Part shown: positions 20,361-38,094 of the stretch, piece by piece
Position numbering within the stretch: position 1 is the first letter of the stretch
Layout of the letters: each line of letters opens with the position of its first letter
Assembly (NCBI GenBank): GCA_964482665.1
Contig: CAYZYW010000004.1
Span: 1 to 40,800, forward strand
Direction of reading: 5' to 3'
Source of the DNA: Candidatus Woesearchaeota archaeon
GTDB taxonomy: Archaea; Nanobdellota; Nanobdellia; Pacearchaeales; GW2011-AR1
DNA length: 40,800 nucleotides
Position numbers and translations under genes: made by a program
Notes under the pieces: generated by a model
Seen by the model: only the letters and a program-made list of their open reading frames with translations
The model's database searches: none
Told to the model about the DNA's origin: nothing

Positions 20361-20702
20361 TATCCTCTATATATATTATATATAAATACCCTATATTAAT
20401 AAATGTTTGGTTGTATTGTTTTGGTAGCATTGTGTTGTTTTCTTGGTGACACCACAACCTTTATAAAAAAACCACCAAAATCTCTTGTTTTATAGGTAAA
20501 ACACCTCAAGCAAAAGAGTAAGCCTTTTAAAGAAAATTCTATTTTGTAATATAATCAAAATGTTCTATAGGGATTTACAACAAAAGAGGAAACAGAATGG
20601 TTCATACTCATCTAATAAATTGGTTTACCCTATAATTGATTTATTGGGAGAAGTTGCCTTAGGTAACATATTTAATATAGTTGAAAGGAGGTTTAAAAAT
20701 AA

Positions 20703-23081
20703 ATGAGATTTAATTTTAAAAAAATCTCAGCAATCGTAACTAGTGCGTTAATGACTGTTTCAGGTATTGGATTCGCAGCTGCTGCAAATTACCCTGCGCC
20801 ATTCGTGGCAAACGGTGCTGCAAATGTTGCCGTTGTTTATGGAGCTAGCGCTGCACAAACAGATTTTGCTCAAGCGGGAAGCATTCAAACTAACTTAGAT
20901 ACTGGTGTTACTGTTACAAGTGGATCAACTGTTATCGATGGTGATTCATGGTCAGTACAAACAACTTCAGATAATTTAGAATTAGGTGAAAGTATATATG
21001 ATGTAGAAAAATACATTGATGAATCTAACTTAGCCCTTCTAACAGATGGGATATTGTCAAACGAAAAAGGAGATGCAAAATATGAGCAATTCTTTTACTT
21101 TGATGATGCATCTTCTTCAAGTGTTGTATACACTGAAGATGATGATAGTAATCTTGGATTATTTTTCAAAATAAGTGATGGCGCAGTAATTGCTAGATAT
21201 GTTATGGATTTTACAACAAATCTTAAGTCCGATATCGAACCTGATACTGAATTATCAGATATAGAAGATAAAGACATTACCTTTTTAGGTAAAACATATA
21301 CAATTACTACTGCAAATAACGGTACAAGTGGTGTAGAGCTTACTTTGATGAGTGGTGCTGAAAAGGCAATTGCTAAAAATGACGAAACTATTAATGTTGG
21401 AGGCAAAGACGTTAGCGTTCTTGTTTCTTCTACAACAGAAGCTCAATTTACTGTAGATGGAGTTACCCTTGATAAAATGAATAAGGGGGAGACAGTTAAA
21501 CTTGCAGACGGTACACATCTTGGTGTTTCGGATATTACATATCAGAATTTCGCCGGAGGTTTAATGCAAGCTACTTTCCATTTAGGTGCTGATAAAATTG
21601 AAATGAACACTGGGTCCACACTGACTGTTAATGGTGAAACTATAGGTGAAGCTGCTGTTACAATAACATCAACTGAAGCTGGATCAGATATTTCTATTTC
21701 AGAAATATCTATTAACATGACTGCTGAAGACGACCTATATGTTCCTGTAAATGGAAAACTTAGTGAAGCTGCTAATCTTGATGAGCCAGAAGTATTGGTT
21801 AGTCAAAATTGGGATATTGTATTCAATGGACTAGCTGAATTTGATTCAGAAGAAATTAGTTTATTACCTTCTAACTCTGACAAACAATACACATTAAACT
21901 TTAATAATTTTAATGGTGATGCTGTTGAGTTGCCTGTGGTTTATGCTACAGCAACTGGACTTAAGGGTGGAGAGTATGATACAGCCGATAAGGATTTATT
22001 AGTTCTTAACGCAAGTGGTACAATTACCGACGAAGATTACTTTGTATTAAATACTGCTAATCCTGCAATATATTCAGATGATGCAAGAAGTTTTGTAGTT
22101 AGATATAGAGGTGCAGATAAGGTTACAGACACTGATCCAAAAGTGACATTTGATATCGCTGGAGTTGAACAAAGTAGAGAAGTATCATTAACTAGTACTG
22201 GAACTTTTGACTTAAAGTTAGGAGGAAGTACATTTAGTTTTGCTAACGCTTCATCTGGAGCAAGCAACAACTTTGATATTACTTTGACAACTGCTCAACT
22301 TGGTTATTCTTCTGTTGCAAATAATGCTGGTTGGTTACAAATGAGAACACAAAATAATGCTCTTATTACTGTAAACAACACAAATGCGTCTCTTGCAACT
22401 TCTAGTTGGATAGTTAAAGTTGACCTTGATGATCAAGATAAGGATGGAGATGATATAAGTTTATCAACTGCTCAGAATGTATTTTCAGTGACACTTTCAA
22501 ATGCTACAAGCACTCTTGAAGTTTCAACTGGATCTGTTACAAGTTCTGGAACGTTCTATACAAATCCAGATAATGATGATGAAACTTTAACAACTACGCT
22601 TTATGGCGCAGATGTATCTGTTTTAGATACTTCAACTGCTCCTGCTAAGATAACAGCTACAATACCGGAATCTATAGTGAATCCAATGGTATATATTACT
22701 TCATCAGAAGCTACTTCAAGTGATGCTTCATCTATGGGTGCGTTACTAGTTCTAGATTCAGACGTTGCTTCAGTTAGTGATAAAAACTTAATTGTTGTTG
22801 GTGGAAGTTGTATAAATACAGCTGCTACTGCTCTATTGGGTGGTGCTTATTGTGGAGATGCGTTTACAGCGGAAACAGGTATTGGTGCAAACCAGTATAT
22901 AATTAAAAGTTATGCTACTTCCGAACTTACAAGTGAACTTGCCCTTTTAGTGGCAGGTTATGAAGCTGCTGAAACTGCTATGGCGACAAGTTACTTGACT
23001 ACGCAAGACGTAGACACAAGCAAGTCGTGGAAAGGAACTAGTGCTGAGACCGCAAGTCAAATTGTTGAGGAAACTGCTTAG
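20703..23081 (+). CDS. S-layer protein
   Basis: Signal peptide, YPAPFV...AVVYG N-motif, C-terminal NLIVVGGSCIN...LLVAG motif of Methanococcus-type S-layers; acidic, T/S/D-rich; strong SD GAAAGGAGG. Confidence 0.88.
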   Translation: MRFNFKKISAIVTSALMTVSGIGFAAAANYPAPFVANGAANVAVVYGASAAQTDFAQAGSIQTNLDTGVTVTSGSTVIDGDSWSVQTTSDNLELGESIYDVEKYIDESNLALLTDGILSNEKGDAKYEQFFYFDDASSSSVVYTEDDDSNLGLFFKISDGAVIARYVMDFTTNLKSDIEPDTELSDIEDKDITFLGKTYTITTANNGTSGVELTLMSGAEKAIAKNDETINVGGKDVSVLVSSTTEAQFTVDGVTLDKMNKGETVKLADGTHLGVSDITYQNFAGGLMQATFHLGADKIEMNTGSTLTVNGETIGEAAVTITSTEAGSDISISEISINMTAEDDLYVPVNGKLSEAANLDEPEVLVSQNWDIVFNGLAEFDSEEISLLPSNSDKQYTLNFNNFNGDAVELPVVYATATGLKGGEYDTADKDLLVLNASGTITDEDYFVLNTANPAIYSDDARSFVVRYRGADKVTDTDPKVTFDIAGVEQSREVSLTSTGTFDLKLGGSTFSFANASSGASNNFDITLTTAQLGYSSVANNAGWLQMRTQNNALITVNNTNASLATSSWIVKVDLDDQDKDGDDISLSTAQNVFSVTLSNATSTLEVSTGSVTSSGTFYTNPDNDDETLTTTLYGADVSVLDTSTAPAKITATIPESIVNPMVYITSSEATSSDASSMGALLVLDSDVASVSDKNLIVVGGSCINTAATALLGGAYCGDAFTAETGIGANQYIIKSYATSELTSELALLVAGYEAAETAMATSYLTTQDVDTSKSWKGTSAETASQIVEETA

Positions 23082-23119
23082 TTTTTCAATTTATTTTTTT
23101 TTATTTTTTTTTATTTTTA
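23082..23119 (+). terminator. T-rich archaeal-type terminator
   Basis: Several oligo-T runs directly after the S-layer stop. Confidence 0.55.
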
Positions 23120-23175
23120 CCTTATTGCGAGAGCTTTCGGGAAAACTTTTTATACTTAGATGAATATTTTTATGT

Positions 23176-23796
23176 ATGAGAAAGCTCAAATCAAAAGCAG
23201 ACGAGGCTAAGAAGAGAAAGAGAAACCAGATTGTAGTGGGGGTTTTATTGATTTTCGTTATGCTTTTCAGTACGCTAGGTTTTGCGTTTAATGGGGGTGG
23301 AAACGATGAAGAAGGACAAGAAAATGCAAATTATAATGGTTTTGAATTTATTGCGCAAAACGGTTACTGGTTTTTAGAATTGGGAAACTATGTTTTTGTT
23401 TTTTCTAATTCTCCTGAGAAAGAAATTGATTTGGAGGTAGAAGGTGAAATAAAATTATTAAATAATTATTTAGGTAGGCCACTTTACATATACTCTGAAA
23501 ACGAAATTTCGAGCTATGAAATTTATAGAAATATGTTTTCAGAAACAAATCAAGTTATTCAACGTGTTCAAAATGCTTGCTTAAATCGTTCGGATTTTAA
23601 TTTGAGTTTATGTAGTGATGATTTTCCAATTAAAACATGTGAAGATAATTTCATATGGATCAAGGAGAGTGAAGAAAATATAATAACACAAGTAGAAAAT
23701 TGTGTTATTATCGAAGGTGAAATTGAGAAACTTCCACAAATCACAGATGAATTTTTATTTAGAACTATTGGGATTAAGAAACCCCTGGTTTCTTAA
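23176..23796 (+). CDS. Membrane-anchored hypothetical protein
   Basis: Basic N-terminus, TM, YNGFEF motif; probable paralog of 24060-24860. Confidence 0.7.
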   Translation: MRKLKSKADEAKKRKRNQIVVGVLLIFVMLFSTLGFAFNGGGNDEEGQENANYNGFEFIAQNGYWFLELGNYVFVFSNSPEKEIDLEVEGEIKLLNNYLGRPLYIYSENEISSYEIYRNMFSETNQVIQRVQNACLNRSDFNLSLCSDDFPIKTCEDNFIWIKESEENIITQVENCVIIEGEIEKLPQITDEFLFRTIGIKKPLVS

Positions 23797-23985
23797 TAAC
23801 CTAAAGGTCACAAGCAACTTCCTCACGTTCCGGCTGGGCAGTATCTTTCTTGCACTTTGGGATGCCACATTGGCCCGTCTAGCGGTCCTTTTGCGTGTGC
23901 TGAATAAGTTAGGGTTAATTGGTGACAGGTAAGAAATGCTTAATGAAAGGGAAGAAATTATTTTGTGGGGTGGTTAGATTTTTGA
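23773..23985. repeat. Dispersed structured repeat element, copy 1
   Basis: Starts with hairpin ATTAAGAAACC-cct-GGTTTCTTAAT; 102-nt GC-rich core 23815-23916 nearly identical to 37928-38028. Confidence 0.9.
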
Positions 23986-24059
23986 AGATGTGGGGGTGCG
24001 ATTAAAGAAAGGTAAATCAACACAATTAAACTTATAAACTTAAATTAATATTAGGTATA

Positions 24060-24860
24060 ATGGTTAAAGAAGAAATAGATTCAAAAAAGAAAGGTAATAT
24101 AGAAAATAAAAAAGATAATTATGGCTCTAGATTAAAAAAAGATATTAAAAATAAATCTTTAAAAATAAAAAAGAAAGTTTGCGAAATTTTTAAAATCAAA
24201 AAGAAAGGTAAAGAAAAAACAATTGAAATGTGTGGAATGCAAGAAGAGCAAAAAGTTACAAAAGGGCAAATTGAACATCATAATAAATTATTAAGAAATA
24301 TTTTGATATTTGTCGGATTAATCTTAGTTGTTTTTTTAATTAGTTATTTTGCATTACAATCGATTAGGCAAACGAATTATAATGGAATTGTTGAATTTGA
24401 AACTCAAAGTTATTGTGCAACAAAACCATGCTTGATTGTTTATCAAACTTCATTACCTGTTATAATGAATGAAAAACCTGCTGATTATAATTTCTATTTT
24501 AGAACGCATCCTTTTGAACTAGAAAGAATTGATTTCGATGGGGACTTGAATATTTTACCTAATATGGTTTTAGAATATCCTGATAATGCATTTTCATGTG
24601 AAGGTTATGGTAATATTGCTATTGCGAATCTTATGAACTTGTATAAAGTTTTAGGAACAACTGTTATTCAAGATAGAAATGCAAGCTGTGATTCAGAAGG
24701 AAGATACATGTATGTTGAACTTAAAGAAGGTGATAAAACTCGAATAGAAAAAGTTGGTCCATCATGTTACGATATTTACATAAAAGATTGTGAAATTCTT
24801 GAAGCAACTGAAAAATTCATGGCTGAAACTTTTGTATATGCTCATGAAAAATTTTTATAA
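24060..24860 (+). CDS. Membrane-anchored hypothetical protein
   Basis: Lys-rich N-terminus, TM, YNGIVEF motif, C-terminal Cys pattern like 23176-23796. Confidence 0.7.
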   Translation: MVKEEIDSKKKGNIENKKDNYGSRLKKDIKNKSLKIKKKVCEIFKIKKKGKEKTIEMCGMQEEQKVTKGQIEHHNKLLRNILIFVGLILVVFLISYFALQSIRQTNYNGIVEFETQSYCATKPCLIVYQTSLPVIMNEKPADYNFYFRTHPFELERIDFDGDLNILPNMVLEYPDNAFSCEGYGNIAIANLMNLYKVLGTTVIQDRNASCDSEGRYMYVELKEGDKTRIEKVGPSCYDIYIKDCEILEATEKFMAETFVYAHEKFL

Positions 24861-25372
24861 ATATTTTTTAAATCTGAATAAACGGGTATTTGTTTTAATT
24901 TGAAAATTTTAACTTCAGAAAACCATATTAAAACTACAAATATTGTACTAAGGAAATACCAAAATATTTTATGAGAAAAATCAAAAAATGTTAAATCATT
25001 TATGAATAGAATTGTTAAAAAAATTATACGAAAGATATTGACAGCTAAAAGGGTTGAAAAAGCGAATAGAATCATTCTCAAACGTTTTTTAAATTTTACC
25101 GAAGGTATTGAGAGATTTAGAATAAAAAGCAAATAATAGGCTGATCCTGCAATGCACGCACTTATAAGTTCTACAATATGTCCCTTAATTAAAATTGATG
25201 GATAAATTAATTCTACTTGTGTAAATAAATTTAAAACAAAATAAATTGGGTAAATTGTTAAAGGCGTTAAAATAAAATAAAATAAATAAAGATTTGGAAT
25301 AGCAATTAAGATAATAATTAAATATCTTAAAATTAAAGATTTGATTTGATTATTATCTGCTTTTTTTAACAT
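24842..25372 (-). CDS. Exosortase/archaeosortase family protein (pacearchaeosortase-like)
   Basis: Polytopic membrane protein with ELISACIAG (Cys), VNIFRI (Arg) and FSHK (His). Confidence 0.8.
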   Translation of the reverse strand: MLKKADNNQIKSLILRYLIIILIAIPNLYLFYFILTPLTIYPIYFVLNLFTQVELIYPSILIKGHIVELISACIAGSAYYLLFILNLSIPSVKFKKRLRMILFAFSTLLAVNIFRIIFLTILFINDLTFFDFSHKIFWYFLSTIFVVLIWFSEVKIFKLKQIPVYSDLKNIYKNFS

Positions 25373-26003
25373 TTACTTTTTTACATAATTTATTTACTGG
25401 ACATTCTGAACATTTTGGTGAGATTGGTGTACATACTTGCTTTCCAAATAAAACAAATAATGCGTTAAATTCTTTCCAGTATTTTTTTGGAAGAATTTTT
25501 TCTAATTCAGCTTCTGTTTTTTCAGGGGTTTTTGTTTTTATCCATCCTAATCTGTTTGGAATCCTATGGCAATGTGTATCAATAGGTAAAACAAGTTTAT
25601 TGTATGCAAAATTTAAAACTATGTTTGCGGTTTTTGGACCTATTCCTTTTATTGATAAAAGTTCATCTCTAATTTTTGGAACACGAGAGTTGAATCTTTT
25701 GATTAAATCATCTGAAACACTTTTAAGAATTTGGGATTTCTTTTTGTAATGGCCTGTTGAAAAAATTAATTTTTCTAATTTTTTAATAGGAATTTTTAAA
25801 ATCTTTTTAGGTGTGTCTGCCACTTTAAAAAGTTCTTTCGAAACTTTCTCGGTTGTTTCATCTCTTGATCTTAGGGAAAGTAAACATGAAATAAGAATTT
25901 TAAATGCATTGGGATTTTTTCGCATTCGATTTAAAGTTGTCCTCTCGTTATAATCAAAATGTTTTGCTAATTTATTCATAACTTTTGGAATCGTATTAAT
26001 CAT
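25353..26003 (-). CDS. nth: Endonuclease III
   Basis: HhH LLSIKGIGPKTAN, IDTH, Fe-S motif CTPISPKCSECPVNKLC. Confidence 0.95.
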   Translation of the reverse strand: MINTIPKVMNKLAKHFDYNERTTLNRMRKNPNAFKILISCLLSLRSRDETTEKVSKELFKVADTPKKILKIPIKKLEKLIFSTGHYKKKSQILKSVSDDLIKRFNSRVPKIRDELLSIKGIGPKTANIVLNFAYNKLVLPIDTHCHRIPNRLGWIKTKTPEKTEAELEKILPKKYWKEFNALFVLFGKQVCTPISPKCSECPVNKLCKKVNVKKSR

Positions 26004-26040
26004 AAATTAAATAAGAAAATTAAGAATTTAAATGTTAGTT

Positions 26041-27699
26041 TTATTTCTTAGAAACTTTTACAGCTACAATTATAATTATTAAGATAAGAACGATGTTCAA
26101 TGCTCCAATTAACCATAAGTGCCAGTTTTCTCCAAATGAATCTAATGAGAATCCGAATATTGATTCTTCAATTGTTACTGTTAAAGCTTGGCTCATTACA
26201 AGTTCTCCGTCTGATGAAACTTCGAAATTTAAAGATTGAGCTCCCTCCGCTGTTCTACTTGTGTCTAATGATAATAAAACTTCTTGTGAAGTACCTGCAC
26301 TTAGGACAATTGTGTTTTGATCTAATGAAACACTTGATGCCCAGTCCTCGTAACCTGTAGCAGCTAAATCAAAAGTTAATGTTTGACTAGTGGGATTTGT
26401 AATTGTTAATTTTAATATTAATTCTTTTCCGGCTACAGCCTCTGAATCTAATAACGCTGAAACACTTGCTTCTGCATCTACTTTACATGCACCTTCTATT
26501 TTAAATAAAACATTGAAAACAGATTCATCATCGTCAAAATCATTTTCATATATATCATTGTCTTCATCATAAACTTTGAATTCTAATGCGTACCATTTTT
26601 CTTCAGCGTCTGAAGGAAGTTCTATTGAAATTTCAAGTTTTTCATTTTCTAAAGCGTCAACATCTCCAATTGTAATTGTTTCAAAAATATCTAAATCCTT
26701 ATTATAAACTACGACATAAACATCTTCTTGATCATCGTCTCCAATGTTCCACGCCTCAGCTTTTAATGTTAAAGTTGATCCACATAAAACTGAATCATCT
26801 AATGTTAAATCATTTAATTTTTTTCCATTAATTTCAAATTCTCCTAGGATTACAAAATCGCTTTCTATTACAATTTCAATTGATTCTGATTCACTTACAC
26901 ATGTCTTATTTCCGTCCAATTCTTCATCTTCGCCTGTTACCCAAACATAAAACACATAATCATGATCTGCATCATAATCTTCTGGATCATCTAATGTGAA
27001 TTCAATTTCTAACGTTTCTTCATCTCCGTCTTTAAGGTCGAAATCATTTTCCTCATCATCAATTATAAATTTTTTATCTGTTAAATCATACAATCCCCAC
27101 TCAACAACAATATCTTTTATCTTTTCGTCTCCGTTATTCTCAACTTCAATTTCAACTTTTATCTTATCTAATGGGAACCATTCTTCATCATCTCCAAATC
27201 CTTCTTCAGTTGAAAAATCTAATGATAATGCTAAATTGCTATTAACACCTGAATATTCACAAAAGTTTTGAACTGGTGTTTCATTTACTGTGATTGCTAA
27301 AGGTAATGTATATGAAACGTCTGATGAATATGTTCCATTTAATATTAAAGATGAATCATATGTTCCCAAAGCTTGTCCTGATGGTACATTTACTGTTAAT
27401 GTCATTTCTACGCTTGTTGCTCCATTGCTTAATGAAGTAACTGCATTTGTAACAGTGCTTGCTGATGTGAAAGTATTTGATCCTGATGTGAAAGTTATTG
27501 GTGTGTTGAAAACCATGCTTGTTAAATCTGCGTATCCACTTTCTTTTAATTTGAAAGTTATTGCTACTGAATCTCCTTGACTAACTGTGCTAACATTATT
27601 TGTAACATCTGTGAAATCGACTATTGCAGTTGCAAAACTTAAAAGTAAAACTACCGAAAAAATCATTGCGCTCATTAGAGTTAATGTTTTTGTTTTCAT
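26041..27699 (-). CDS. Putative S-layer/surface protein with Ig-like (CARDB-like) domains and C-terminal TM
   Basis: Signal peptide, very acidic beta-rich repeats (VEVENNG, AWNIG, ITNP), C-terminal NWHLWLIGALNIVLILIIIIVAVKVSKK. Confidence 0.78.
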   Translation of the reverse strand: MKTKTLTLMSAMIFSVVLLLSFATAIVDFTDVTNNVSTVSQGDSVAITFKLKESGYADLTSMVFNTPITFTSGSNTFTSASTVTNAVTSLSNGATSVEMTLTVNVPSGQALGTYDSSLILNGTYSSDVSYTLPLAITVNETPVQNFCEYSGVNSNLALSLDFSTEEGFGDDEEWFPLDKIKVEIEVENNGDEKIKDIVVEWGLYDLTDKKFIIDDEENDFDLKDGDEETLEIEFTLDDPEDYDADHDYVFYVWVTGEDEELDGNKTCVSESESIEIVIESDFVILGEFEINGKKLNDLTLDDSVLCGSTLTLKAEAWNIGDDDQEDVYVVVYNKDLDIFETITIGDVDALENEKLEISIELPSDAEEKWYALEFKVYDEDNDIYENDFDDDESVFNVLFKIEGACKVDAEASVSALLDSEAVAGKELILKLTITNPTSQTLTFDLAATGYEDWASSVSLDQNTIVLSAGTSQEVLLSLDTSRTAEGAQSLNFEVSSDGELVMSQALTVTIEESIFGFSLDSFGENWHLWLIGALNIVLILIIIIVAVKVSKK

Positions 27700-27827
27700 C
27701 TGTAGTCATTTAAGGATTACTATGGTTTATAAAGATTTCGGTTCTGTAGAATATATGTCATTTTTTAGAAATATGTATATAATATAGGGGGCACAAAGTT
27801 TATATAATATTTTAACTAATAATTTTT

Positions 27828-28214
27828 ATGGTTTTAAAATCTCACGACAATAAAATTGGCGCATGGGCATTTTTAATTGGGGTTGTGTTAGCATTGATGA
27901 TTGGTTTATCTACGACACTGTTGTCGATTCCATCATTGAAAGAATATGGTGCTCAAATTTATGGTATTTTAGTTATACTTGGTATAATGGTTGGATTTTT
28001 GAATGTAGCAGGAAAAGACTCTCAGACCTTTTTGCTTACTGGGTTAGTTTTAGTTATTGTTAGTAAATTTGGAATGGAAAGTGTTACCGGCTCATTAATG
28101 GGTGTTGGAATTGGAGATACTGTTATTGCGATATTTTCTGCACTGTTAGTTTTGTTTGTTCCTGCAACAATTATTGTAGCATTAAAAACTGTTTTTAGTA
28201 TAGCGAAGATATAG
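27828..28214 (+). CDS. Small 4-TM membrane protein
   Basis: GAWAFLIG, VGFLNV, FVPATIIVALK; hydrophobic; TATA box ~28 nt upstream. Confidence 0.75.
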   Translation: MVLKSHDNKIGAWAFLIGVVLALMIGLSTTLLSIPSLKEYGAQIYGILVILGIMVGFLNVAGKDSQTFLLTGLVLVIVSKFGMESVTGSLMGVGIGDTVIAIFSALLVLFVPATIIVALKTVFSIAKI

Positions 28215-28273
28215 TATTGTTATTAGAAATGATAAATAGAATAATTTAAAAACTCTACAATTTATTTAATTTT

Positions 28274-28708
28274 ATACCTAACTTAAAAAGAAAAATTCAA
28301 AATAGACTAATAGGAGTATTGCTATTTAGGGGAATGGCTTTATCTGGGGGAGTAAGTATACTTTCGGGAGCTTATTTACACCACACTCAACCAAAAAAAC
28401 CACAAATATTCTCTGAATACGAAAATTTAAACCAAAAATATAATTATTTAAATTCAACTAAGCAGTTTAATTTAGAAAAAGCAGCAGATAAAATATATCT
28501 TCAAAAACAGGTCGATAAAGTAACTTCTCTTTCTGAAAAAATAAAACGCATTGAGCTATCTGATGATTATGTAAAAATAACTAAACATAAAGATAGAAAA
28601 AGCAAGCATAATAAATATTGGTCAATTCCAATTTTGTCTTTTGCGATTGGTGTATCTTCTATGCTATATGGAATGCGCTTGGACTCTAAAATCAATCCTC
28701 CCCTTTGA
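28274..28708 (+). CDS. Hypothetical membrane protein; possibly pseudogenised start (ATA at 28274, TTG at 28319)
   Basis: Frame open from 28274; TM-coil-TM layout; no ATG at the expected leaderless position. Confidence 0.45.
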   Translation: MPNLKRKIQNRLIGVLLFRGMALSGGVSILSGAYLHHTQPKKPQIFSEYENLNQKYNYLNSTKQFNLEKAADKIYLQKQVDKVTSLSEKIKRIELSDDYVKITKHKDRKSKHNKYWSIPILSFAIGVSSMLYGMRLDSKINPPL

Positions 28709-28792
28709 TTAATCCATAACATTAGTTTTTATTTCTTTGAACACCAAGAGATATAATCATAGTAATTATCGCAATAACTATAAATAAAACAA

Positions 28793-29284
28793 TTAATGAA
28801 AAAAAGATTTTAACTCTTGTTTCAAGTCAGAAATTTGTGTAATTATTTTTCCTTTATACAAACCAATAAAATACTCTACTTGAAGATTCACAGTCGAACC
28901 TTCATTGTCAGCAGATAGTCTAAAATCTCCCCTATAGCCCAACGTTGGCTTTCCTAAAGCAGTGGCATAGCCAATTTCTGAGGCTGTTCCGCTATCAACA
29001 TCAACACCATCTAAAACAGCCACCAATCCCGATGACTCCTGAATTGCATCTGCATTATTTTTTCCAATAATTTTATTGAGTTCTTTCCACCGATCTCTTT
29101 TTTCTTGCCCATAAGGCAATTGTAAAACTGCGTCAACAAGATCGTCTGAAGTTAACTTCCAAGGATCAAGAACTAAATATCCCAATTCCTCAATTGCTGG
29201 AATAATTTTTGAATACATAAAATCTCTTCCGACCTCTGAAAATCCCAATGGAGAAGCTACATAAATTTTTGTTTTTTCAGACAT
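28793..29284 (-). CDS. Nucleoside 2-deoxyribosyltransferase-family protein
   Basis: IYVASPLGF, DGVDVDSGTASEIGYA, NLQVE motifs. Confidence 0.9.
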   Translation of the reverse strand: MSEKTKIYVASPLGFSEVGRDFMYSKIIPAIEELGYLVLDPWKLTSDDLVDAVLQLPYGQEKRDRWKELNKIIGKNNADAIQESSGLVAVLDGVDVDSGTASEIGYATALGKPTLGYRGDFRLSADNEGSTVNLQVEYFIGLYKGKIITQISDLKQELKSFFH

Positions 29285-29357
29285 GATATAAAAAATATAA
29301 ACTAAATATATAAAGATTTCTTTCTTTTAAATTCTTAATGCTTTAAAATTATCAATA

Positions 29358-29969
29358 TTACAAATCTTTCATATTAACAATCGAGGTTGAATTTAAATCC
29401 ATTCGTGGACAAGCTGTATTTACCCAACTTTCTAATTGGAAGTTTTCAGATTCTGCCATGTTTAAATCGTTTGCTAAAAATAAATATGATTTTTTTGAAT
29501 TTAGATTTTTTTTGAATTTTAAAGCTTGATTAAATCTTTGTTGTCCTGGTTTTGTTGAAATTAAAATTCCAATTTTATCTGAATTTAGATATTTCATATA
29601 TGCTCCCTTTTTTCTTTTTTCTAATTTGTCAACCTCTGTATTTGGAATTTTTTGCAAAGTGTTGTGAGAATAAAGATGGACTTGAATTTTGGATTCGCGC
29701 ATTAATGAAACTGCGTGAAATCTTCCTTCTCCTATTAATAAAATTGACTCTGTGTTTTTCTTAAACCTTGGATTTGAACAGCCTAAAACCTGAATGAAAT
29801 CTGTTATATTATTTGTTTTTGATAGAATTGTTTTTATTTCTAAGGCTATGTCTTTAAATTGAATCGAATAAGCTATTGCGATATTTTTTGATAAAGGCTT
29901 TGTTAAAGATATTAATTTTTTTGTGTTAAGTTTTAATCTAGATTTCGCTGGAATAAATAATGTTTTCAT
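29358..29969 (-). CDS. dph2: Diphthamide biosynthesis Dph2-family protein, N-terminally truncated (203 aa)
   Basis: QVLGC, GEGRFH, STKPGQ, VNTACPR motifs; start ATG 29969. Confidence 0.82.
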   Translation of the reverse strand: MKTLFIPAKSRLKLNTKKLISLTKPLSKNIAIAYSIQFKDIALEIKTILSKTNNITDFIQVLGCSNPRFKKNTESILLIGEGRFHAVSLMRESKIQVHLYSHNTLQKIPNTEVDKLEKRKKGAYMKYLNSDKIGILISTKPGQQRFNQALKFKKNLNSKKSYLFLANDLNMAESENFQLESWVNTACPRMDLNSTSIVNMKDL

Positions 29970-30003
29970 ATAAACCGAAAAGAGTTTGGGTATAAATAAG
30001 TAT

Positions 30004-30387
30004 CTAAGAGAATCTGCTTTCTTTTGGAGCCCTTGAAGGTTCTTTGTAAATTTGAGCAAAAGATGGTGTAACAATTATTGTATCTTCTAAAAATCCTGCT
30101 ATGCTTCCCTCAAGCGCATCTGTTGTTTTCTTGATTTTTGAAACGGCTCGCTTTAATTCAATTGGATCTCTTTTTCGTAAAATCTTAATGTCAATTACAG
30201 CAATACAATAACCTTCTCGTAATGCTGCCAAAATATCGTTAACATCTTCATATTGTTTTAATACAAATAGTTTCACAGCTATCTTTTTATCTTTCTTTTC
30301 TTGATGTAAATCTATCTCTAAATATTCGTCTCCCATTGATTCTACATCACTTGGCGATCCAAACGCCTTTTTTATTTTATTAAACAT
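30004..30387 (-). CDS. sepF: Cell division protein SepF
   Basis: EYLEIDL, LREG..AVIDI, LKRAV, GSIAG..IIVTP. Confidence 0.88.
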   Translation of the reverse strand: MFNKIKKAFGSPSDVESMGDEYLEIDLHQEKKDKKIAVKLFVLKQYEDVNDILAALREGYCIAVIDIKILRKRDPIELKRAVSKIKKTTDALEGSIAGFLEDTIIVTPSFAQIYKEPSRAPKESRFS

Positions 30388-30478
30388 AATAATTTTACAT
30401 TGAAGATATTTATAAAGATTTCGTAAGTTTAGTATATAGGTTTTGGATTTGATTGAATAATAAAGGAGATTTAATAAA

Positions 30479-30964
30479 ATGGAATTTGCTTATAATGATA
30501 GGATGAAAATAAGAAGAGGTACTAAAAATGATATATTTTCTGCGGAAAAACTGGTTTGCGATACATTTGCTAAATGTAATTACAATGAGGGCTCAAAAAA
30601 GAGTGTTCAGGGATATTTAGATATACATGATCCTGTAAAAAATTTAAAACGAATAAGTGAGATATTTGAACAAACTGAGATATATTTTATAGCAGTTGAA
30701 AATAACAAGATTATTGGGAAAATCAGTGGAAAAAGATTTAAAATTGGGAATTTATATGTAAACCCTCAATATCATAAAAAAGGTATTGCTAGAAAACTTG
30801 TTGAAAGATTTGAAAAAGAAGCTAAAAAACTAGGATCTAAAGAAATTAAAATTAAATCTTCTTTATATGCAATTCCCTTTTATCAAAAAATGGGTTATAA
30901 AAAAACAACCGGAATTAGAAAAATGATAGGATTAAATTTTCAACCAATGAAGAAAAATATTTAA
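30479..30964 (+). CDS. GNAT acetyltransferase (start may be 30503)
   Basis: LYVNPQYHKKGIARKLV, AIPFYQKMGY. Confidence 0.9.
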   Translation: MEFAYNDRMKIRRGTKNDIFSAEKLVCDTFAKCNYNEGSKKSVQGYLDIHDPVKNLKRISEIFEQTEIYFIAVENNKIIGKISGKRFKIGNLYVNPQYHKKGIARKLVERFEKEAKKLGSKEIKIKSSLYAIPFYQKMGYKKTTGIRKMIGLNFQPMKKNI

Positions 30965-31137
30965 GATTAAGAAAGTAGAAAATTTTGATAGAAACAAAAT
31001 CAAGAGAAATTTTTCCAGACCTTATTAATGAAAAATCAAATAGCTATTATCTGTCGAATGTGTGGGTGGATAGGTTGGCCATATAGATTGGTGGATTAAT
31101 TAAAATATAGAAAAGTTAGCAAATTTATTAATTAAAA

Positions 31138-31461
31138 TTATTCTTTTTTCATTCCAGACATAACTTCATCTCGAAGTTTTTGAACTTGGTCGTTCAACTT
31201 TTCTTCTTGATCTTCGAAATTTTTCATTCGAGTTTCAATAACTTTCTTTTTGTTTTCCATATCTGATTTGATTTTATCTTTTGACGTTTTTATCATTAAT
31301 TGTCCAACTATTTTGAAAACTTCATCTCCTGAGTTTTCTAATTCTTTTAATGCTGATTCTGTTTCATTCAATTCCATTTGAAAAGCTTGTTTCTGCATAA
31401 GCATATTTTGAAAGCCTTGTTCAAGCATTTGTAATTCTTGGATTTTATTTTGGTTTTCCAT
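31138..31461 (-). CDS. pfdB: Prefoldin subunit beta
   Basis: Coiled coil with central VFKIVGQLMIK hairpin. Confidence 0.92.
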   Translation of the reverse strand: MENQNKIQELQMLEQGFQNMLMQKQAFQMELNETESALKELENSGDEVFKIVGQLMIKTSKDKIKSDMENKKKVIETRMKNFEDQEEKLNDQVQKLRDEVMSGMKKE

Positions 31462-31599
31462 TTAATCTGTTTTTAATGTTTTAACTGCTGTTCGTGGCTT
31501 GAAAAAAATCAAACTTCCACAATGTGGGCAGACAAATCTTTTGTCAAGATCTTTTGAGTCGATTTCTTTTCCGCACTTGAAGCATTTATATGTTGTCAT
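31462..31599 (-). CDS. rpoP: DNA-directed RNA polymerase subunit P (Rpo12), missing from the ORF track
   Basis: Manual translation MTTYKCFKCGKEIDSKDLDKRFVCPHCGSLIFFKPRTAVKTLKTD; conserved position between rpl37ae and pfdB. Confidence 0.92.
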   Translation of the reverse strand: MTTYKCFKCGKEIDSKDLDKRFVCPHCGSLIFFKPRTAVKTLKTD

Positions 31600-31600
31600 T

Positions 31601-31819
31601 TTAATCTAAATAATATGTGTTTGATGCAAATGTTTTGTCGCATTTTTTGCAATTCCAAATTCCGTTTGCTTTTCGTTTTACGCCAAGCTTTTCACAGAAA
31701 GGACACTTTTGTTTAATTCTTTGTTTTTCTTCAACTTGAGTTAATTTGTTTCTAACTTTACGTCCGTATCTTGCACCGAAACGTCCTGCTGATTTTGTTT
31801 TTTTTAATTTTGTAGTCAT
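31601..31819 (-). CDS. rpl37ae: 50S ribosomal protein L37ae
   Basis: AGRFGARYG, CPFC...GIWNCKKC. Confidence 0.96.
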   Translation of the reverse strand: MTTKLKKTKSAGRFGARYGRKVRNKLTQVEEKQRIKQKCPFCEKLGVKRKANGIWNCKKCDKTFASNTYYLD

Positions 31820-31995
31820 TTTAGAACCTTAATATAATAAATTATAGAAATGGGTTTTAAAAGGTTTCGGGTTGTAAAGGGGGTGCTTAATTCCAAGTTA
31901 AATCAAAGATTCAATGAAACTATTTGAATTTGTACGGTGAAAATTCGATAGAACCATTATTCATTCAAATTTTTAATTTAAATCTAATAATAAAA

Positions 31996-32069
31996 TGGGA
32001 CTACCCGGATTTGAACCGGGGTCACGAAGTCCCAAACCTCGAAGCTTAACCAGGCTGGCCCATAGTCCC
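31996..32069 (-). tRNA. tRNA-Pro(TGG)
   Basis: Reverse complement GGGACTA...TAGTCCC-A acceptor, D arm AGCCTGG, anticodon stem CGAGG/CTTCG with loop TTTGGGA, T arm CCCGG-TTCAAAT-CCGGG; no intron, CCA not encoded. Confidence 0.95.
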
Positions 32070-32132
32070 TTATAAAATATTAGAGAATTAATGATTTATA
32101 AAATGTGCGTTATTATTGTTTTTCAAAAAAAA

Positions 32133-32726
32133 TTATTTTTTTTCAGCTGCTGCTTTTTCAGCTGCCTCTTTGATGAACTTTGCCTGATCTTCTTCAATTG
32201 TTTTAAAGTATTCATCAAGCTCTTTTTGTTTCTCATCTGATGTTTCAATTTTTTCTTCAGAAATTTCTTTATCATAAACTCCTGCATCAATATCTGCTTC
32301 AATTTTAACTGCACTTTTACTTTCAATTAAAACTCCCAAACTTACACATGATCCTACAATTGTTTTTACAGCTGTCTTTAAATTTCTACATAAAAGATTT
32401 GGCATTTTTGTTTTAGCAACTGAAATTATTTGTTCAATTGAAGCATTTGCAACTTTAACTTTTTCCTGCATTCCTGATGCCTTTTTCAAACCTAATTCTT
32501 TTTTTAATAATTCTGAAACAGGGGGTGATGAAATTTCAATCTCGAACTCTTTTGTTCCAGTATCAACTTGTAATGTTACAGGTACTTTCATTCCTTTGAA
32601 TCCAGCAGTTGCTTCATTAACTTTTGCAATTACATTGCTAATATTTATTCCGGCTGGTCCTAGCTGTTGACTTAAAGCTGGTCCTGGCTTCATTGCCCCG
32701 CCTTCTGCTAATAATTTAATCTGCAT
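32133..32726 (-). CDS. rpl11: 50S ribosomal protein L11 with acidic C-terminal extension
   Basis: GGAMKPGPAL...LGPAGINI, GMKVPV, GSCVSLGV. Confidence 0.96.
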   Translation of the reverse strand: MQIKLLAEGGAMKPGPALSQQLGPAGINISNVIAKVNEATAGFKGMKVPVTLQVDTGTKEFEIEISSPPVSELLKKELGLKKASGMQEKVKVANASIEQIISVAKTKMPNLLCRNLKTAVKTIVGSCVSLGVLIESKSAVKIEADIDAGVYDKEISEEKIETSDEKQKELDEYFKTIEEDQAKFIKEAAEKAAAEKK

Positions 32727-33171
32727 CTTCGTCTCCTTCTCTTCTTATAACTTTAACATTATCTATTTTTATGGTTACCGGTATTGGAATTGCGGCACCT
32801 AATAAGCTAACTACGACTTCGCCCTTTTGTTTATCAATTCTAGTGACCTTTGCTTTTTCTTTCTTGAAAGGTTCAGAAATTATTTCAACTATATCTCCAT
32901 CTTTAATTGAAACTGAAGTAGCTGATGGTTCAATCATGTTCTTTATTTCTTCGTATGTAATTGTTTTTCCAATTATTCCTTTAATATAAGGTAATCCATA
33001 AACTGCCTCTTCTGCTGCATCTCGCGTTTCAGATTCTAAAAGAATGTATCCTCGTAATCCATGCGGTCTTGAGACTGAAGCAATTTTAAGGTTTTTTTTC
33101 TGAGCCTTATCTGCAATCATTTCGACTGCTCTTTCTTCTTTGTTTGTTATTACTTTTATAATGAAAATCAT
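32716..33171 (-). CDS. spt5: Transcription elongation factor Spt5 (NusG)
   Basis: NGN domain (LRGYILLE) plus KOW motif (GDIVEIISEPFK). Confidence 0.95.
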   Translation of the reverse strand: MIFIIKVITNKEERAVEMIADKAQKKNLKIASVSRPHGLRGYILLESETRDAAEEAVYGLPYIKGIIGKTITYEEIKNMIEPSATSVSIKDGDIVEIISEPFKKEKAKVTRIDKQKGEVVVSLLGAAIPIPVTIKIDNVKVIRREGDEDAD

Positions 33172-33237
33172 TTTTTGACCAATCTAAGCATAAAATCTTA
33201 GAAAGATATAATTAAAGTGAGATAAGGGTTTATAAAA

Positions 33238-33417
33238 TTATCGAAAAAGTGATTTCATAATCACTGATATTATAAATCCAAAAAGTCCAAGAAATAAAAT
33301 CCCGAAGGCTGAAACTTTCGCTGTCATCTCAAATTCTTTTCTTGATGGTTTTTTCAAAACATACCAAACACGTTTACATTTTAATGCGAACGATTTTGTA
33401 AATTTCCAAGCTTTCAT
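33238..33417 (-). CDS. secE: Protein translocase SecE/Sec61-gamma (missing from the ORF track)
   Basis: Manual translation MKAWKFTKSFALKCKRVWYVLKKPSRKEFEMTAKVSAFGILFLGLFGFIISVIMKSLFR; ftsZ-secE-spt5 synteny. Confidence 0.93.
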   Translation of the reverse strand: MKAWKFTKSFALKCKRVWYVLKKPSRKEFEMTAKVSAFGILFLGLFGFIISVIMKSLFR

Positions 33418-33454
33418 AAAAATAATAAAGAGTATGAGTTTTTAATGTTTTTGC

Positions 33455-34552: not shown

Positions 34553-34684
34553 ATTAAATTTAGAAGTTGATTGTTTATAAAAATTGTTGTGTTAAAAGGG
34601 GTATATTATTGAAACATTTTTATAAAAAGATGCCTGAAAAAATCACTTGATTATTTAATAATTCCAAACTCAGGGAAAGAACTC

Positions 34685-35044
34685 ATGAAGGTTCGAAAAG
34701 CTCGAGCGAAAAAAGCGTTGAAAAATCGTGTTGTTTATAATGTTTTGATAATTAAAGACAAAGATAGTGAAGAAGATATTTTATATTTGGGAAAAATTTT
34801 GAAAAAAGGTAATAGGGTTGGAATTGATACTTTTCATTTGCATTTTAAAGAATACAAAGAATTAATCAAGAAAGCGAAGCGTGATGGAAAATTTCCAAAA
34901 GGAGTTAAAATTGAAAATATTAATGGCTTTTTATCCAGCCTATCCTTAGAACAACCTGATCCAAAAGTTAATCCAACTCCTAATGCAATCACTCCAGTTC
35001 CTATTTTTAATCTTTGTTTTAAGTCCATATTAATAAAACTCTAA
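34685..35044. pseudogene. Two overlapping convergent gene fragments (34685-35044 + and 34834-35028 -)
   Basis: The + ORF looks natural for ~80 aa, the - ORF has a signal/lipobox-like start (GLTFGSGC); each then reads into the antisense of the other. Confidence 0.4.
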
Positions 35045-36463: not shown

Positions 36464-36479
36464 ATACATTGAGGTGAAT

Positions 36480-37904
36480 ATGAACTTTATAATACTAGAC
36501 CTTTCGTTACTTGCAATTTTTCTAATCTCGATTTCAATTCTTCTTTATAAAAATAAAAAAAATCTAGTTCAAGATGGACCTCTTTATTTATATAAAGCTC
36601 AATGGGGAATTAATTTAATTAAGAATGTCGGTAAAAAATATTCAAACTTTTTAAAAAAAATTAGCTATGTTTCAATGGGTGTAGGTTACGTTTTGATGGC
36701 CGGCATTGTATTTTTAATTTTACAAACAGTTTACCTTTATCTTACAACTCCAATTGCTAGAGCAATTAAAGCTCCACCAATTATGCCCTTGATTCCATAC
36801 TTTCCTAAATTGTTCGGACTTAGTAGCATGTTTCCTCCATTTTATTTTATATATTTTATTTTAGCATTAATAATTGTTGCAACAGTTCATGAATTTTCGC
36901 ACGGAATTTTCGCAAAAGCTTTTGGAATACGAATTAAGACAACCGGTTTTGCTTTTTTCAAATACTTCCCTGCCTTGTTTGGTGCATTTGTAGAACAGGA
37001 TGAAAAACAAATGAATAAGCAAAGTAGATTTGCAAAAATGAGTGTTATCTCTGCTGGTGTATTTGCAAATGTTTTAACTGGGTTTTTATTTTTTGGACTT
37101 TTGATTTTAACATTTTCACTTTCATTTAGCGCATCAGGTGTTGTGTTTGACACATATAGTTATTCAGCTGTAAAAATTTCAAACATATCGAGCGTTAATG
37201 GAATTTCAATTGCGGATTCAAATTATGATAATATTCTTGACTTATTAGAAGAAAATAAAACAAATAATGTTTCAATCGGAGATGTTAATTATTTGACAAC
37301 AATAGAATTTTTTGAAAAACAAAAAGAATACAATGGGTCAGCAATTCTTTATCATGATTCTCCTGCCTTGAATGCTGGACTTTATGGAGCTATTCATAAA
37401 ATTGATGGAGAGATTATTAACAATCGAGATACATTGAAAAAAATATTGAATGAAAAAAATATTGGAGATGTTATTACAATAACTTCTATAGATGATGATA
37501 AAAAAGAAATAGAAACTGAAATCGTTTTGGGTGAACATCCTGAAGAGGAAGGTAGAACATGGATTGGAATTGGATTTATGGAAAAAAACACAGAAGGTTT
37601 TAGAGGAAAAATTTATTCATTCTTTTCATCATTTAAGGATTCAAGTATTTATTATACCCCTGATTATGAAGTTAGTTATTTCATTTATCATTTGTTATGG
37701 TGGATTGTTTTGATTAATTTTGCCGTTGCTTTATTCAATATGCTTCCGGTTGGAATTTTAGATGGTGGTATGTTCTTTTATTTAACGTTAGAAGGTCTTA
37801 CAAAATCAGAAAAATTTTCGAAAAAAGCATTTAGTTTTATGAATTGGTTTTTCTTGCTATTGTTTGTTACTTTAATGGTTAGATGGGTTTTTATTTTCTT
37901 TTAA
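36480..37904 (+). CDS. Site-2 protease (M50) with PDZ-like domain
   Basis: HEFSH, GAFVE, SAGVFAN, FNMLPVGILDGG; SD GAGGTGA upstream. Confidence 0.93.
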   Translation: MNFIILDLSLLAIFLISISILLYKNKKNLVQDGPLYLYKAQWGINLIKNVGKKYSNFLKKISYVSMGVGYVLMAGIVFLILQTVYLYLTTPIARAIKAPPIMPLIPYFPKLFGLSSMFPPFYFIYFILALIIVATVHEFSHGIFAKAFGIRIKTTGFAFFKYFPALFGAFVEQDEKQMNKQSRFAKMSVISAGVFANVLTGFLFFGLLILTFSLSFSASGVVFDTYSYSAVKISNISSVNGISIADSNYDNILDLLEENKTNNVSIGDVNYLTTIEFFEKQKEYNGSAILYHDSPALNAGLYGAIHKIDGEIINNRDTLKKILNEKNIGDVITITSIDDDKKEIETEIVLGEHPEEEGRTWIGIGFMEKNTEGFRGKIYSFFSSFKDSSIYYTPDYEVSYFIYHLLWWIVLINFAVALFNMLPVGILDGGMFFYLTLEGLTKSEKFSKKAFSFMNWFFLLLFVTLMVRWVFIFF

Positions 37905-38094
37905 TTAAGAAACCCCTGGTTTCTTAACAACTTCCTCACATCCGGTTGGGCAGCATCTTTCTTGCACTTTGGGATGCCACATTGGCCCGTCTAGCGGTCC
38001 TTTTTCGTGTGCTGAATAAGTTAGGGTTGTTGACGATAGGTAAGAGATGGTTTATAATAGGTGAAATGTTTTGTGAGGTGGCTAGATTGTTTGA
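37904..38094. repeat. Dispersed structured repeat element, copy 2
   Basis: Same hairpin start and core as 23773-23985; lacks an 18-nt segment present in copy 1. Confidence 0.9.

Follow-up and report, generated by a model that had tools for sequence, protein, structure and literature searches.

Short palindromic repeats of the REP, BIME and REPIN kind are non-coding, multi-copy sequences of bacterial genomes that are mostly found just 3' of genes, and REPINs are mobilised by RAYT. REP copies are alike within a genome and diverged between genomes, with the pairing of their stems conserved. Other small non-autonomous inserts, such as the Correia, ERIC and RUP MITEs and the Rickettsia palindromic elements, are tolerated by keeping the neighbouring genes expressed. 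IS1634, an autonomous insertion sequence of the DDE type bounded by inverted ends, makes direct repeats of very variable length, whereas IS200/IS605 elements insert 3' of a fixed target of 4-5 nt and produce no target duplication. A relic of an omega-RNA is expected to follow a tnpB gene, at its 3' end. The genomes of DPANN-type archaea rank among the smallest and most densely packed known, and these archaea are usually called poor in mobile DNA. The gain of archaeal tRNA introns via an integrating element has been proposed (PMC3293823). In mitochondria, double-hairpin elements, the repetitive hairpin-forming elements of sponges and the GC clusters of yeast are described as small mobile hairpin inserts (PMC2800124, PMC4478555).

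Two copies of a small hairpin repeat are present in the window, that is, the whole stretch of 40,800 nt that was analysed, from contig CAYZYW010000004.1 of a Candidatus Woesearchaeota archaeon. This non-coding repeat looks like an undescribed miniature mobile DNA and not like an RNA gene. The family to which it belongs is probably a mobile, non-autonomous structured repeat of the REP/MITE kind, and the two window copies, both in sense orientation, are likely to be old representatives of this small, non-autonomous element, which either still moves or once did. No description of such a family was found in the literature searched, supplementary files excepted. The first-pass annotation had offered a candidate ncRNA or a palindromic mobile element; the second option is retained here, and the ribozyme, IS200/IS605 and omega-RNA proposals that accompanied it are not.

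The copies lie at 23773-23985 and 37904-38094, both on the + strand, and share 81% identity (BLASTN, E 1e-51), in agreement with their earlier description as look-alike copies in one orientation. As had been noticed, each begins at its 5' end with the same hairpin, the exact palindrome TTAAGAAACC-cct-GGTTTCTTAA, which has two matches in the window against 0.05 expected. The core of about 102 nt differs between the two copies by four substitutions and one indel of one base, and the tail is diverged, both as first reported from the alignment. "GC-rich" applies to the element only relative to its surroundings, with about 37% in a 400-nt bin against a background of about 30%.

In copy 1, hairpin 1 occupies 23774..23796 (+), and compensatory changes at this hairpin are found in other copies. 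It encodes the final five codons and the stop codon (23794-23796, +) of the upstream gene, an ORF of 206 aa without a Pfam family at 23176..23796 (+); the earlier reading that the copy supplies the last codons of this gene is thus correct. The ortholog in a related genome, G407 (46% identity, E 3e-56), has a C-terminus that is five residues shorter (...IIGVK versus ...TIGIK+KPLVS in the genome studied here, G000), and its end is the exact start of the element array of G407 itself. The additional 18 nt that had been reported for copy 1, TAACCTAAAGGTCACAAG, are present at 23797..23814 (+) and mark a subfamily, as 4 of the 14 copies in the genome carry this segment (C4a, C2a, C14 and C10). It is followed by the motif AACTTCCTC at 23816..23824 (+), hairpin 2 at 23838..23868 (+; GCAGTATC ... 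GATGCCAC), which is supported by covariation, and a genome-specific 3' domain, ATTGGCCCGTCTAGCGGTCCTTTTGCGTGTGCTGAATAAGTTAGGG, at 23869..23914 (+) with a run of T4-T5 inside. The purine-rich, diverged tail covers 23915..23985 (+); its 3' limit is uncertain, and BLASTN aligns it with another copy of the genome, C2a, as far as 23985.

Copy 2 is located behind an M50 peptidase gene (36474..37904, +; ORF list and Pfam), whose stop codon at 37902-37904 (+) is directly adjoined by hairpin 1 at 37905..37927 (+). The motif AACTTCCTC is found at 37929..37937 (+), hairpin 2 at 37950..37980 (+; GCAGCATC ... GATGCCAC), the 3' domain at 37981..38026 (+) and the diverged tail at 38027..38094 (+), the last two delimited by identity among the genome copies and, for the tail, by BLASTN.

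The view that only two copies exist does not survive a BLASTN search of the 0.62-Mb genome, in which 14 copies are spread over 10 contigs. The most conserved segment among them is the 3' part of the core, the 3' domain, with a mean pairwise identity of 92% and a conserved T4-T5 run in the alignment; over the tail, identity drops from 57% to 43%. The genes upstream are unrelated to each other and include an M50 peptidase, RtcB, Kae1/TsaD, DUF424 and hypothetical genes. The named ones are housekeeping genes and not tnpB, which speaks against an omega-RNA relic. In 7 of the 14 copies the upstream stop is the element's own TAA; in one further copy it is the TAA of the 3' arm, and in another the stop lies immediately before the element. 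At C7b, a 71-codon ORF spans the entire antisense element and ends 9 nt inside a GTPase gene, and at C22 a 9-nt repeat includes the 3' end of tRNA-Phe, 26 nt away from hairpin 1. A protein-coding remnant was ruled out, since indels of 1 nt and of 2-3 nt between copies leave no common coding frame, and the antisense peptide frames are mostly broken. A long open antisense frame is present in 9 of 12 copies and is barely longer than in shuffles (P 0.004-0.19 for those 9/12). Over 20500-40000, contigs of four public DNA runs end at both copies, with no join that bridges or skips either. An exact-pattern scan of the genome contig collection gave no matches. The same pattern in metagenome contigs gave eight stretches, which are each 99.9-100% identical to this genome's own contigs and therefore include no independent relatives.

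The pairing of both hairpins was examined over 112 distinct copies, and both covary strongly. Paired cells amount to 91% versus 80.5% in shuffles (0 of 500 shuffles as high) and to 37-59% in controls with a slid structure. Double changes occur in 15 of 18 pairs, with 251 double-changed cells versus 79 expected. For hairpin 2, 95% of cells are paired family-wide and 7 of 8 pairs have double changes. Within this genome, compensatory changes are seen in hairpin 1 of C22, C21 and C7b and in hairpin 2 of C13 and C9. Of the helices proposed earlier, hairpin 1 and GYATC/GATGC (hairpin 2) are thus supported by covariation and the others are not: AACTT/AAGTT and CAC/GTG are nearly invariant among copies, and for CCG/CGG 6 of the 14 copies have CAT with no compensating change. 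The related claim that G-U pairing is preserved on the + strand only fails across the family, where G-U/U-G pairs number 46 and A-C/C-A pairs 56. Without a sense-strand excess of G-U over A-C, the covariation does not establish an RNA-specific structure. The core folds with an unremarkable energy (z -0.83 for the + strand, -1.12 for the - strand). A different core fold, obtained with RNAalifold from the 14 copies, was weakly supported and not relied upon.

A BLASTN search of the element against 60 relatives, which include no genome of the same genus, gave as its sole match a hairpin-sized one in G035, and this led to the wider family. The first ~85 nt, comprising hairpin 1, the invariant AACTTCCTC and hairpin 2, match a two-hairpin element of relatives. 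This homology is based on alignment A3, in which copies from G000 and from 11 other genomes are combined and AACTTCCTC is invariant in 20 of 20 sequences. Among 150 other genera belonging to the same family, covariance model R1 detects the element in 42. The richest genomes are G407 with at least 29 copies and G451 with 27; R1 scored no more than 29 candidates in any genome, so a count at that ceiling is a lower bound. The genomes are 61-92% complete, and kin are not independent. The motif pattern has 51 matches, spread over 22 of the order's 400 genomes, versus 17 matches for a reversed-pattern control. Tandem arrays of the element have been observed in G407 and G171. The genome-specific 3' domain is absent from the relatives searched, which bear different modules in that place, for instance a third hairpin in the case of G407. 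Element positions common to different genera number at least three: the end of the ORF at 23176-23796 (G407), the start of the GTPase gene (G243) and the flank of tRNA-Phe (G328).

In relatives, at least 15 non-array copies are flanked by directly adjoining direct repeats of the target of 11-44 nt, the left one terminating at element position 1, which marks those copies as insertions. Among the duplicated targets are, in 7 genera, the opening 11 codons of Gins51 and, at L052, a tRNA-Glu 5' end. Given its dispersed copies, its unrelated neighbours and these duplications in relatives, the element fits a generic interspersed non-autonomous mobile repeat. At the 14 copies of this genome, no target duplications of at least 10 nt adjoin the element, and none are found at stop-abutting copies here or in relatives, the window copies included, so the mobility of the window copies is inferred from the relatives. 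In fresh insertions, the final ~8 nt of the left flank recur in inverted form near the element's 3' end.

Copies sit directly against stop codons, start codons or tRNA ends, or interrupt tRNAs as introns, and lie in either orientation relative to the adjoining gene. In the relatives, 5 of 92 copies are tRNA introns according to ARAGORN, with three clean cases (Lys-CTT, Glu-TTC and Gly-GCC). Seven copies have a junction 1-2 nt from a mature tRNA 5' or 3' end, and 17 have one 0-3 nt from a candidate leaderless start. In 10 of these 17, the antisense element is crossed by an ORF of 32-105 codons that begins with ATG and terminates 2-4 nt ahead of the start; at L040, a 45-aa uORF overlaps the ATG of Gins51 as ATGA.

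In order, the element consists of hairpin 1, the invariant AACTTCCTC, a linker, hairpin 2 and a lineage-specific 3' module, which in this genome is the highly conserved ATTGGCCC...AAGTTAGGG domain followed by the decaying tail. The hairpins and the motif may be cis signals for copying, read as DNA or on either strand, and the mobilising activity would be supplied in trans. The element may persist at gene boundaries because it is harmless there by design. Where the element lies in sense, the T(A/G)A with which it opens would supply a stop codon to the upstream gene. In the antisense orientation, an open frame would cross the element and end in TAA on or beside the ATG of the next gene, so that this gene could be translated by termination-reinitiation. 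The window copies probably persist as 3' trailers of the ORF at 23176-23796 and of the M50 peptidase gene, where the T-run may have a putative terminator effect. A 3'-UTR role may apply to stop-abutting copies and is not the common function of the family, since copies are also placed antisense against start codons, at the ends of tRNAs and within tRNAs.

Compared with the described systems, the element shares with REP, BIME and REPIN sequences the features named above. Unlike REP, it is polar, with two different hairpins and an invariant single-stranded motif, resides in an archaeal host, has target duplications of 11-44 nt and occurs on start codons, on tRNA ends and within tRNAs. No Y1/RAYT partner tracks it either: 16 of the 42 genomes that bear the element have Y1_Tnp, as do 31 of the 108 that lack it. 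Similarly to the Correia, ERIC, RUP and Rickettsia palindromic elements, it is a small insert tolerated at or in genes, and its tolerance seems due to the built-in stop and to the open frame terminating at the start codon that follows. Unlike MITEs, it lacks terminal inverted repeats and a short duplication of fixed length; its ends differ from each other, a hairpin at the 5' side versus a variable 3' end, which departs from the classical MITE. The long target duplications of variable length resemble those of IS1634, also a prokaryotic element. With mobile archaeal tRNA introns, it has in common related sequences at the canonical intron site and tRNA fragments duplicated beside the insert. The model proposed for their gain involves an integrase-bearing element of 1.8 kb and a fixed att site (PMC3293823), in contrast to the present insert, which measures ~90-200 nt, has no genes and makes a different duplication at each site. 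The mitochondrial hairpin elements are likewise described from very compact host genomes and as having no transposase of their own (PMC2800124, PMC4478555); hosts and sequences are unrelated.

How the element moves can be addressed tentatively. The preferred possibility, for which the chances are somewhat below even, is spread by copy-choice, with template switching at hairpins during replication or repair and no dedicated transposase. The seven junctions 1-2 nt from mature tRNA ends are not easily accounted for by selection and hint at an RNA-level step that would fall outside the template-switching model. A broader proposal, which is doubtful as a whole, is that transposase-less, "translation-transparent" hairpin elements exist in archaea and spread by an as yet undescribed mechanism, with long, variable duplications, an inverted flank copy and junctions on mature RNA ends, and that they can also be spliced as tRNA introns. 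The mature RNA ends in that proposal are tRNA position +1, the discriminator base, the canonical intron site and leaderless start codons. If it is true, the elements owe their movement to host machinery, either RNA processing (RtcB together with the splicing endonuclease) or template switching, and would be a living source of new archaeal introns.

The alternative that survives best is a host-serving RNA signal at gene boundaries whose copies are kept by selection. Hairpin 1 and the motif, and here also the T-run, would then form a terminator, processing site or stabiliser that punctuates a compact genome. The flush placement at stops, starts and tRNA ends agrees with such a signal, as does the covariation of the hairpins, and the strongly uneven conservation (92% in the 3' domain) together with the positions common to genera would fit a host function under selection. 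The conserved T4-T5 run also points in this direction, oligo-T tracts being archaeal transcription terminators. Several results make this explanation unlikely nevertheless. G-U pairs in the stems do not exceed A-C pairs on the sense strand, the core folding energy is unexceptional, and copies occur in both orientations. The long target duplications and tandem arrays are marks of insertion or slippage and not features of a signal, and with no match in 108 of 150 related genera the signal would be dispensable. No Rfam family corresponds to the element: at gathering thresholds the whole window contains tRNA-Pro only, and at E<=10 the region 23600-24100 gives chance-level matches of 10-20 bits, all far under threshold, of which those overlapping the element reach just its first bases or its tail. 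The element therefore belongs to no known ribozyme or ncRNA family, contrary to the ribozyme suggestion.

Quite improbable is an RNA-level, intron-like mobile element that is cut by the tRNA splicing endonuclease at a bulge-helix-bulge, re- or mis-joined by RtcB and then returned to the genome by reverse transcription and recombination. The tRNA introns among the relatives' copies support it; by eye, L063 can be drawn as a relaxed form of the motif, with a stem of 5 bp, a CUCU/GGAG helix of 4 bp and two bulges of 3 nt. The junctions near mature tRNA ends and candidate leaderless starts are also in its favor, and the inverted flank copy would pair the flank with the element. The flank-complement signal comes from few independent sites, however, as runs of at least 8 nt occur in 13 of 91 copies, with arrays and the single Gins51 site included. 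Moreover, the reverse transcriptase RVT_1 is found in just 19 of the 42 genomes that bear the element, compared with 37 of the 108 that lack it, and is absent from G407, RNA ligation is not expected to give long direct target duplications, and the stop-abutting copies, the window pair among them, need no splicing.

The remaining explanation, an IS200/IS605 relic or PATE, or a REPIN that a RAYT-type Y1 transposase moves, perhaps accompanied by a transcript resembling omega-RNA, is very improbable. In its favor, the ends of IS200/IS605 are brought to mind by the subterminal hairpins, by the strand polarity and by the missing terminal inverted repeats, and 47 of the family's 150 genomes have Y1 transposases. 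Against it stand the differing left flanks, the 11-44-nt duplications, which IS200/IS605 does not make, and the lack of an Rfam match. Y1_Tnp is absent from this genome, where TnpB is represented by a single sub-threshold zinc-ribbon match of 20 bits with a stop inside. Of the 42 genomes that bear the element, 26 give no Y1_Tnp match, G407 and G451, which have the most copies, among them.

Among candidate mobilisers, reverse transcriptase, Y1 transposase and Cas1 (0 of 42 element-bearing genomes) were rejected, as none is associated with the presence of the element. A DGR variable region or template was likewise rejected: the copies follow stop codons, and their differences, judged by eye from alignment columns, are not limited to adenines. 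Integron attC, 5S-like, C/D-box and k-turn readings were set aside on inspection of the sequence alone.

The repeat bears on how selfish DNA persists where non-coding space is nearly nil, being present in dozens of copies in some genomes. Stop codons, start codons and tRNA introns are settings that it tolerates and may even exploit. If its mechanism is based on RNA ends or is intron-like, it also bears on how archaeal tRNA introns arise. In practical terms, the copies break assemblies and produce false ORFs and false N- or C-terminal extensions. Cases in point are the last five codons of the ORF at 23176-23796 and the long ORFs C7:14157 and C21:8153.

The stretches at 23773-23985 (copy 1, or C4a) and 37904-38094 (copy 2, or C4b) are homologous on the + strand, with 81% identity (BLASTN, E 1e-51). 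Both are opened by the exact palindrome TTAAGAAACC-cct-GGTTTCTTAA (hairpin 1), which has two matches in the window versus 0.05 expected. Their ~102-nt cores are separated by four substitutions and one 1-nt indel, the tails are much more diverged than the cores, and copy 1 carries 18 additional nt. The upstream ORF of copy 1 (23176-23796) continues through hairpin 1 and ends at the TAA of its 3' arm, and the stop codon of an M50 peptidase gene (37902-37904) immediately precedes hairpin 1 of copy 2. The shared orientation and opening hairpin, the core, tail and extra nucleotides, and the last codons supplied to the upstream gene had all been described in the first-pass annotation and are reproduced here. 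Its count of two copies is correct for the window, but the whole genome (G000; 617 kb, 44 contigs, ~30% G+C, 86.5% complete) contains 14 copies spread over 10 contigs. The host is judged to be a small-genome archaeon from an S-layer domain, RtcB, Kae1, intron-bearing tRNAs and TATA-like boxes, the latter seen by eye in the window ~27 nt upstream of start codons. The S-layer domain, an archaeal outer-domain match (PF05124, E 4e-8), belongs to a 792-aa protein (20703-23081, +) encoded shortly before the copy-1 gene.

Mean pairwise identity among the 14 copies is strongly uneven along the element. It is highest in the 3' domain (92%), followed by the region of the motif AACTTCCTC (88%), the arms of hairpin 2 (84-88%), hairpin 1 (83%), the linker (76%) and the loop of hairpin 2 (69%); it drops from 57% to 43% in the tail and is 36% in the unrelated flank. 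Indels of 1 and 2-3 nt between copies exclude a shared reading frame. The folding energy of the core is no better than that of shuffled sequences (z -0.83 on the + strand and -1.12 on the - strand).

A BLASTN search of 60 relatives with the G000 element returned nothing beyond one hairpin-sized match, adjoining a tRNA, in which hairpin 1 is followed by CAACTTCC closing a short stem (locus L017). When 400 genomes of the order were searched for hairpin 1 plus AACTTCC, allowing three mismatches at most, 22 of them contained a total of 51 matches, versus 17 matches in 15 genomes for the reversed control. Alignment A3 and the loci themselves show that the G000 element is homologous over its first ~85 nt to a two-hairpin element of relatives, in which hairpin 1 is followed by the invariant AACTTCCTC, then by a linker and finally by hairpin 2, of 8 bp. 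The part 3' of hairpin 2 is lineage-specific, being a ATTGGCCC...AAGTTAGGG domain and tail in G000 and a third hairpin in the related genome G407. Covariance model R1 (E<=1e-3) was run on 150 other genera of the family and detected the element in 42. With at most 29 candidates scored per genome, G451 has 27 matches, G428 has 20 and G407 at least 29. Tandem arrays of 4-5 whole units occur in G407 (period ~121 nt; L067 1807-2261 on contig C18, and L068 on C13) and in G171 (141 nt; L058 on C7), and the G407 array starts where the ortholog of ORF 23176-23796 has its stop codon.

Base pairing was counted on 112 distinct copies (alignment A5) with hairpin 1 in its corrected register. Hairpin 1 of R1 is offset by two columns from the structure tested, which means that in hairpin 1 the alignment had not been made to fit that structure. 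Paired cells amounted to 91.0% versus 80.5% after shuffling, with none of 500 shuffles as high; double changes were present in 15 of 18 pairs, with 251 double-changed cells versus 79 in shuffles, and partners slid out of register were 37-59% paired. Therefore, both hairpins are real and under selection. The strand is not indicated by the mismatch types in these copies: G-U/U-G against A-C/C-A is 30 to 26 in hairpin 1 and 16 to 30 in hairpin 2. The earlier proposal that G-U pairing is kept on the + strand only thus fails family-wide, and the stems might act in DNA or on either strand.

Copies are found at the boundaries of genes. In seven of the 14 G000 copies (C2a, C2b, C2c, C14, C10, C7a and C9), the element's own TAA is the stop codon of the co-oriented upstream gene, including rtcB (C2b) and kae1 (C10). 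C4a supplies the TAA of its 3' arm as described above, the stop directly in front of the element in C4b also occurs in C22, and the remaining four copies (C7b, C21, C18 and C13) are antisense and adjoin the start or promoter of a gene. At C7b, the antisense element is spanned in full by a 71-codon ORF that overlaps the GTPase start (G000:C7:13988-14203, +), and at G000:C21:8153 the longest ORF of a gene that we take, from its N-terminal sequence, to be SRP54-like begins inside the element; ORF callers will mis-annotate both places.

Among 92 distinct copies with a 5' end from relatives, a co-oriented ORF ends at the element TAA or 3-4 nt ahead of it in 13, and in 17 a divergent gene has a candidate start codon at most 3 nt from position 1. 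Ten of these 17 have an ATG-started ORF of 32-105 codons through the antisense element, with its stop 2-4 nt ahead of the start (TAATG or TAA-ATG); at L040, the ATG of Gins51 is overlapped as ATGA by a 45-aa uORF. The element is a tRNA intron in five of the 92 copies (ARAGORN, introns allowed), with three clean cases in Lys-CTT, Glu-TTC and Gly-GCC. Also, two copies lie 1 nt past a tRNA 3' end and five are antisense, 1-2 nt upstream of a tRNA 5' end. A single tRNA-Glu(TTC) gene (L115, G428:C69, 476-722) has both an 89-nt element intron and an antisense copy 1 nt before its 5' end, and in an rRNA spacer (L127, G345:C17) the element starts 8 nt past the 16S rRNA 3' end (...GGATCACCTCCT). Three positions are common to different genera: the end of ORF 23176-23796 and its G407 ortholog (46% identity, E 3e-56), the start of a DRG-like GTPase gene in G000 (C7b) and G243 (57% identity), and the tRNA-Phe 3' flank in G000 (C22) and G328.

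Direct repeats of 11-44 nt surround at least 15 of the 92 copies, all outside arrays. On the left, no more than a few nt separate the end of the repeat from element position 1; on the right, the repeat starts 0-31 nt past the model end. At eight copies in seven genera, the repeat spans 36-43 nt and takes in the start of Gins51 (named by Pfam) with its first 11 codons; other duplications cover 44 nt of a gene start (L146), 18 nt of a tRNA-Glu 5' end (L052) and 23 nt including a tRNA-Phe 3' end (L062). In several fresh insertions, the final ~8 nt of the left flank recur in inverted form near the element 3' end. Flank-complementary runs of at least 8 nt occur in 13 of 91 copies versus 1.6% of permuted pairs; arrays and the recurrent Gins51 site contribute to this count, which leaves few independent sites. 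In G000, such a trace is confined to C22, where 9 nt that take in the tRNA-Phe 3' end are repeated; the two copies in the window are old and bear no footprint.

The first-pass annotation had offered a non-autonomous palindromic mobile element or a structured RNA. With the footprints in relatives, a non-autonomous element, mobile now or formerly, is the best fit, and no Rfam family, ribozyme or other, was matched. The hairpins and motif would be its cis signals, and its ends may be shaped so that insertion at gene boundaries causes little harm. In sense orientation, it would provide a built-in stop codon for the upstream gene; in antisense, an open frame through the element would end on the start of the next gene. 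Termination-reinitiation in archaea is reported in PMC6728339.

For mobilisation, we lean towards hairpin-promoted template switching on four grounds: long duplications of variable length, a flank that is copied in part and inverted, the existence of tandem arrays, and no enzyme co-occurring with the element. An RNA-level, intron-like mechanism is kept alive by the junctions, which fall on the ends of mature RNAs, and these should be invisible to processes acting on DNA. The systems closest in behaviour are REP/REPIN, signal-carrying MITEs, Rickettsia palindromic elements, mitochondrial hairpin elements and mobile archaeal tRNA introns. The defining tests of IS200/IS605 PATEs, REPIN-RAYT systems and classical MITEs are failed by the element. 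No description of it was found in the literature searched, supplementary files being outside that scope. The present analysis contributes the finding that the G000 and family-wide elements are homologous, the distribution of the element, tests of covariation and of strand, the copies within tRNAs or flush with their ends, and the negative enzyme associations.

These associations were scored in the same 150 genera, 42 with the element. The reverse transcriptase domain RVT_1 is present in 56 genomes (19 overlapping with the element), the transposase domain Y1_Tnp in 47 (16 overlapping; none in G000, G407 or G451) and Cas1 in 10 (0 overlapping). None of the three tracks the element, and these are weak negatives since the genomes are incomplete and related to each other. 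The suggested IS200/IS605-type PATE or omega-RNA-like relic is disfavored, as G000 has no Y1 transposase and its TnpB-like zinc ribbon is sub-threshold. This TnpB/Cas12f zinc-ribbon match (31513-31623, -; 20 bits, internal TAG), beside tRNA-Pro, may be a decayed TnpB or merely a zinc ribbon. Two tyrosine recombinases are encoded in G000: one in the window (344-820, +; 136 bits), which looks like a housekeeping Xer-type gene, and one of 432 aa at G000:C21:3036-3494 (-; 46 bits), 5 kb from the C21 copy. In addition, a reverse-transcriptase domain lies in two neighbouring pieces in different frames at G000:C3:25023-25720 (-).

Directly 3' of tRNA-Pro (31996-32069, -), ~166-170 nt of the stretch 31823-31994 are skipped in contigs of the public sequencing runs X3 and X4, and contigs of X1, X2 and X4 have 9-14 other letters in its place. 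At this tRNA 3' end there is a polymorphism of the presence/absence or replacement type, and the stretch may be another small cassette.
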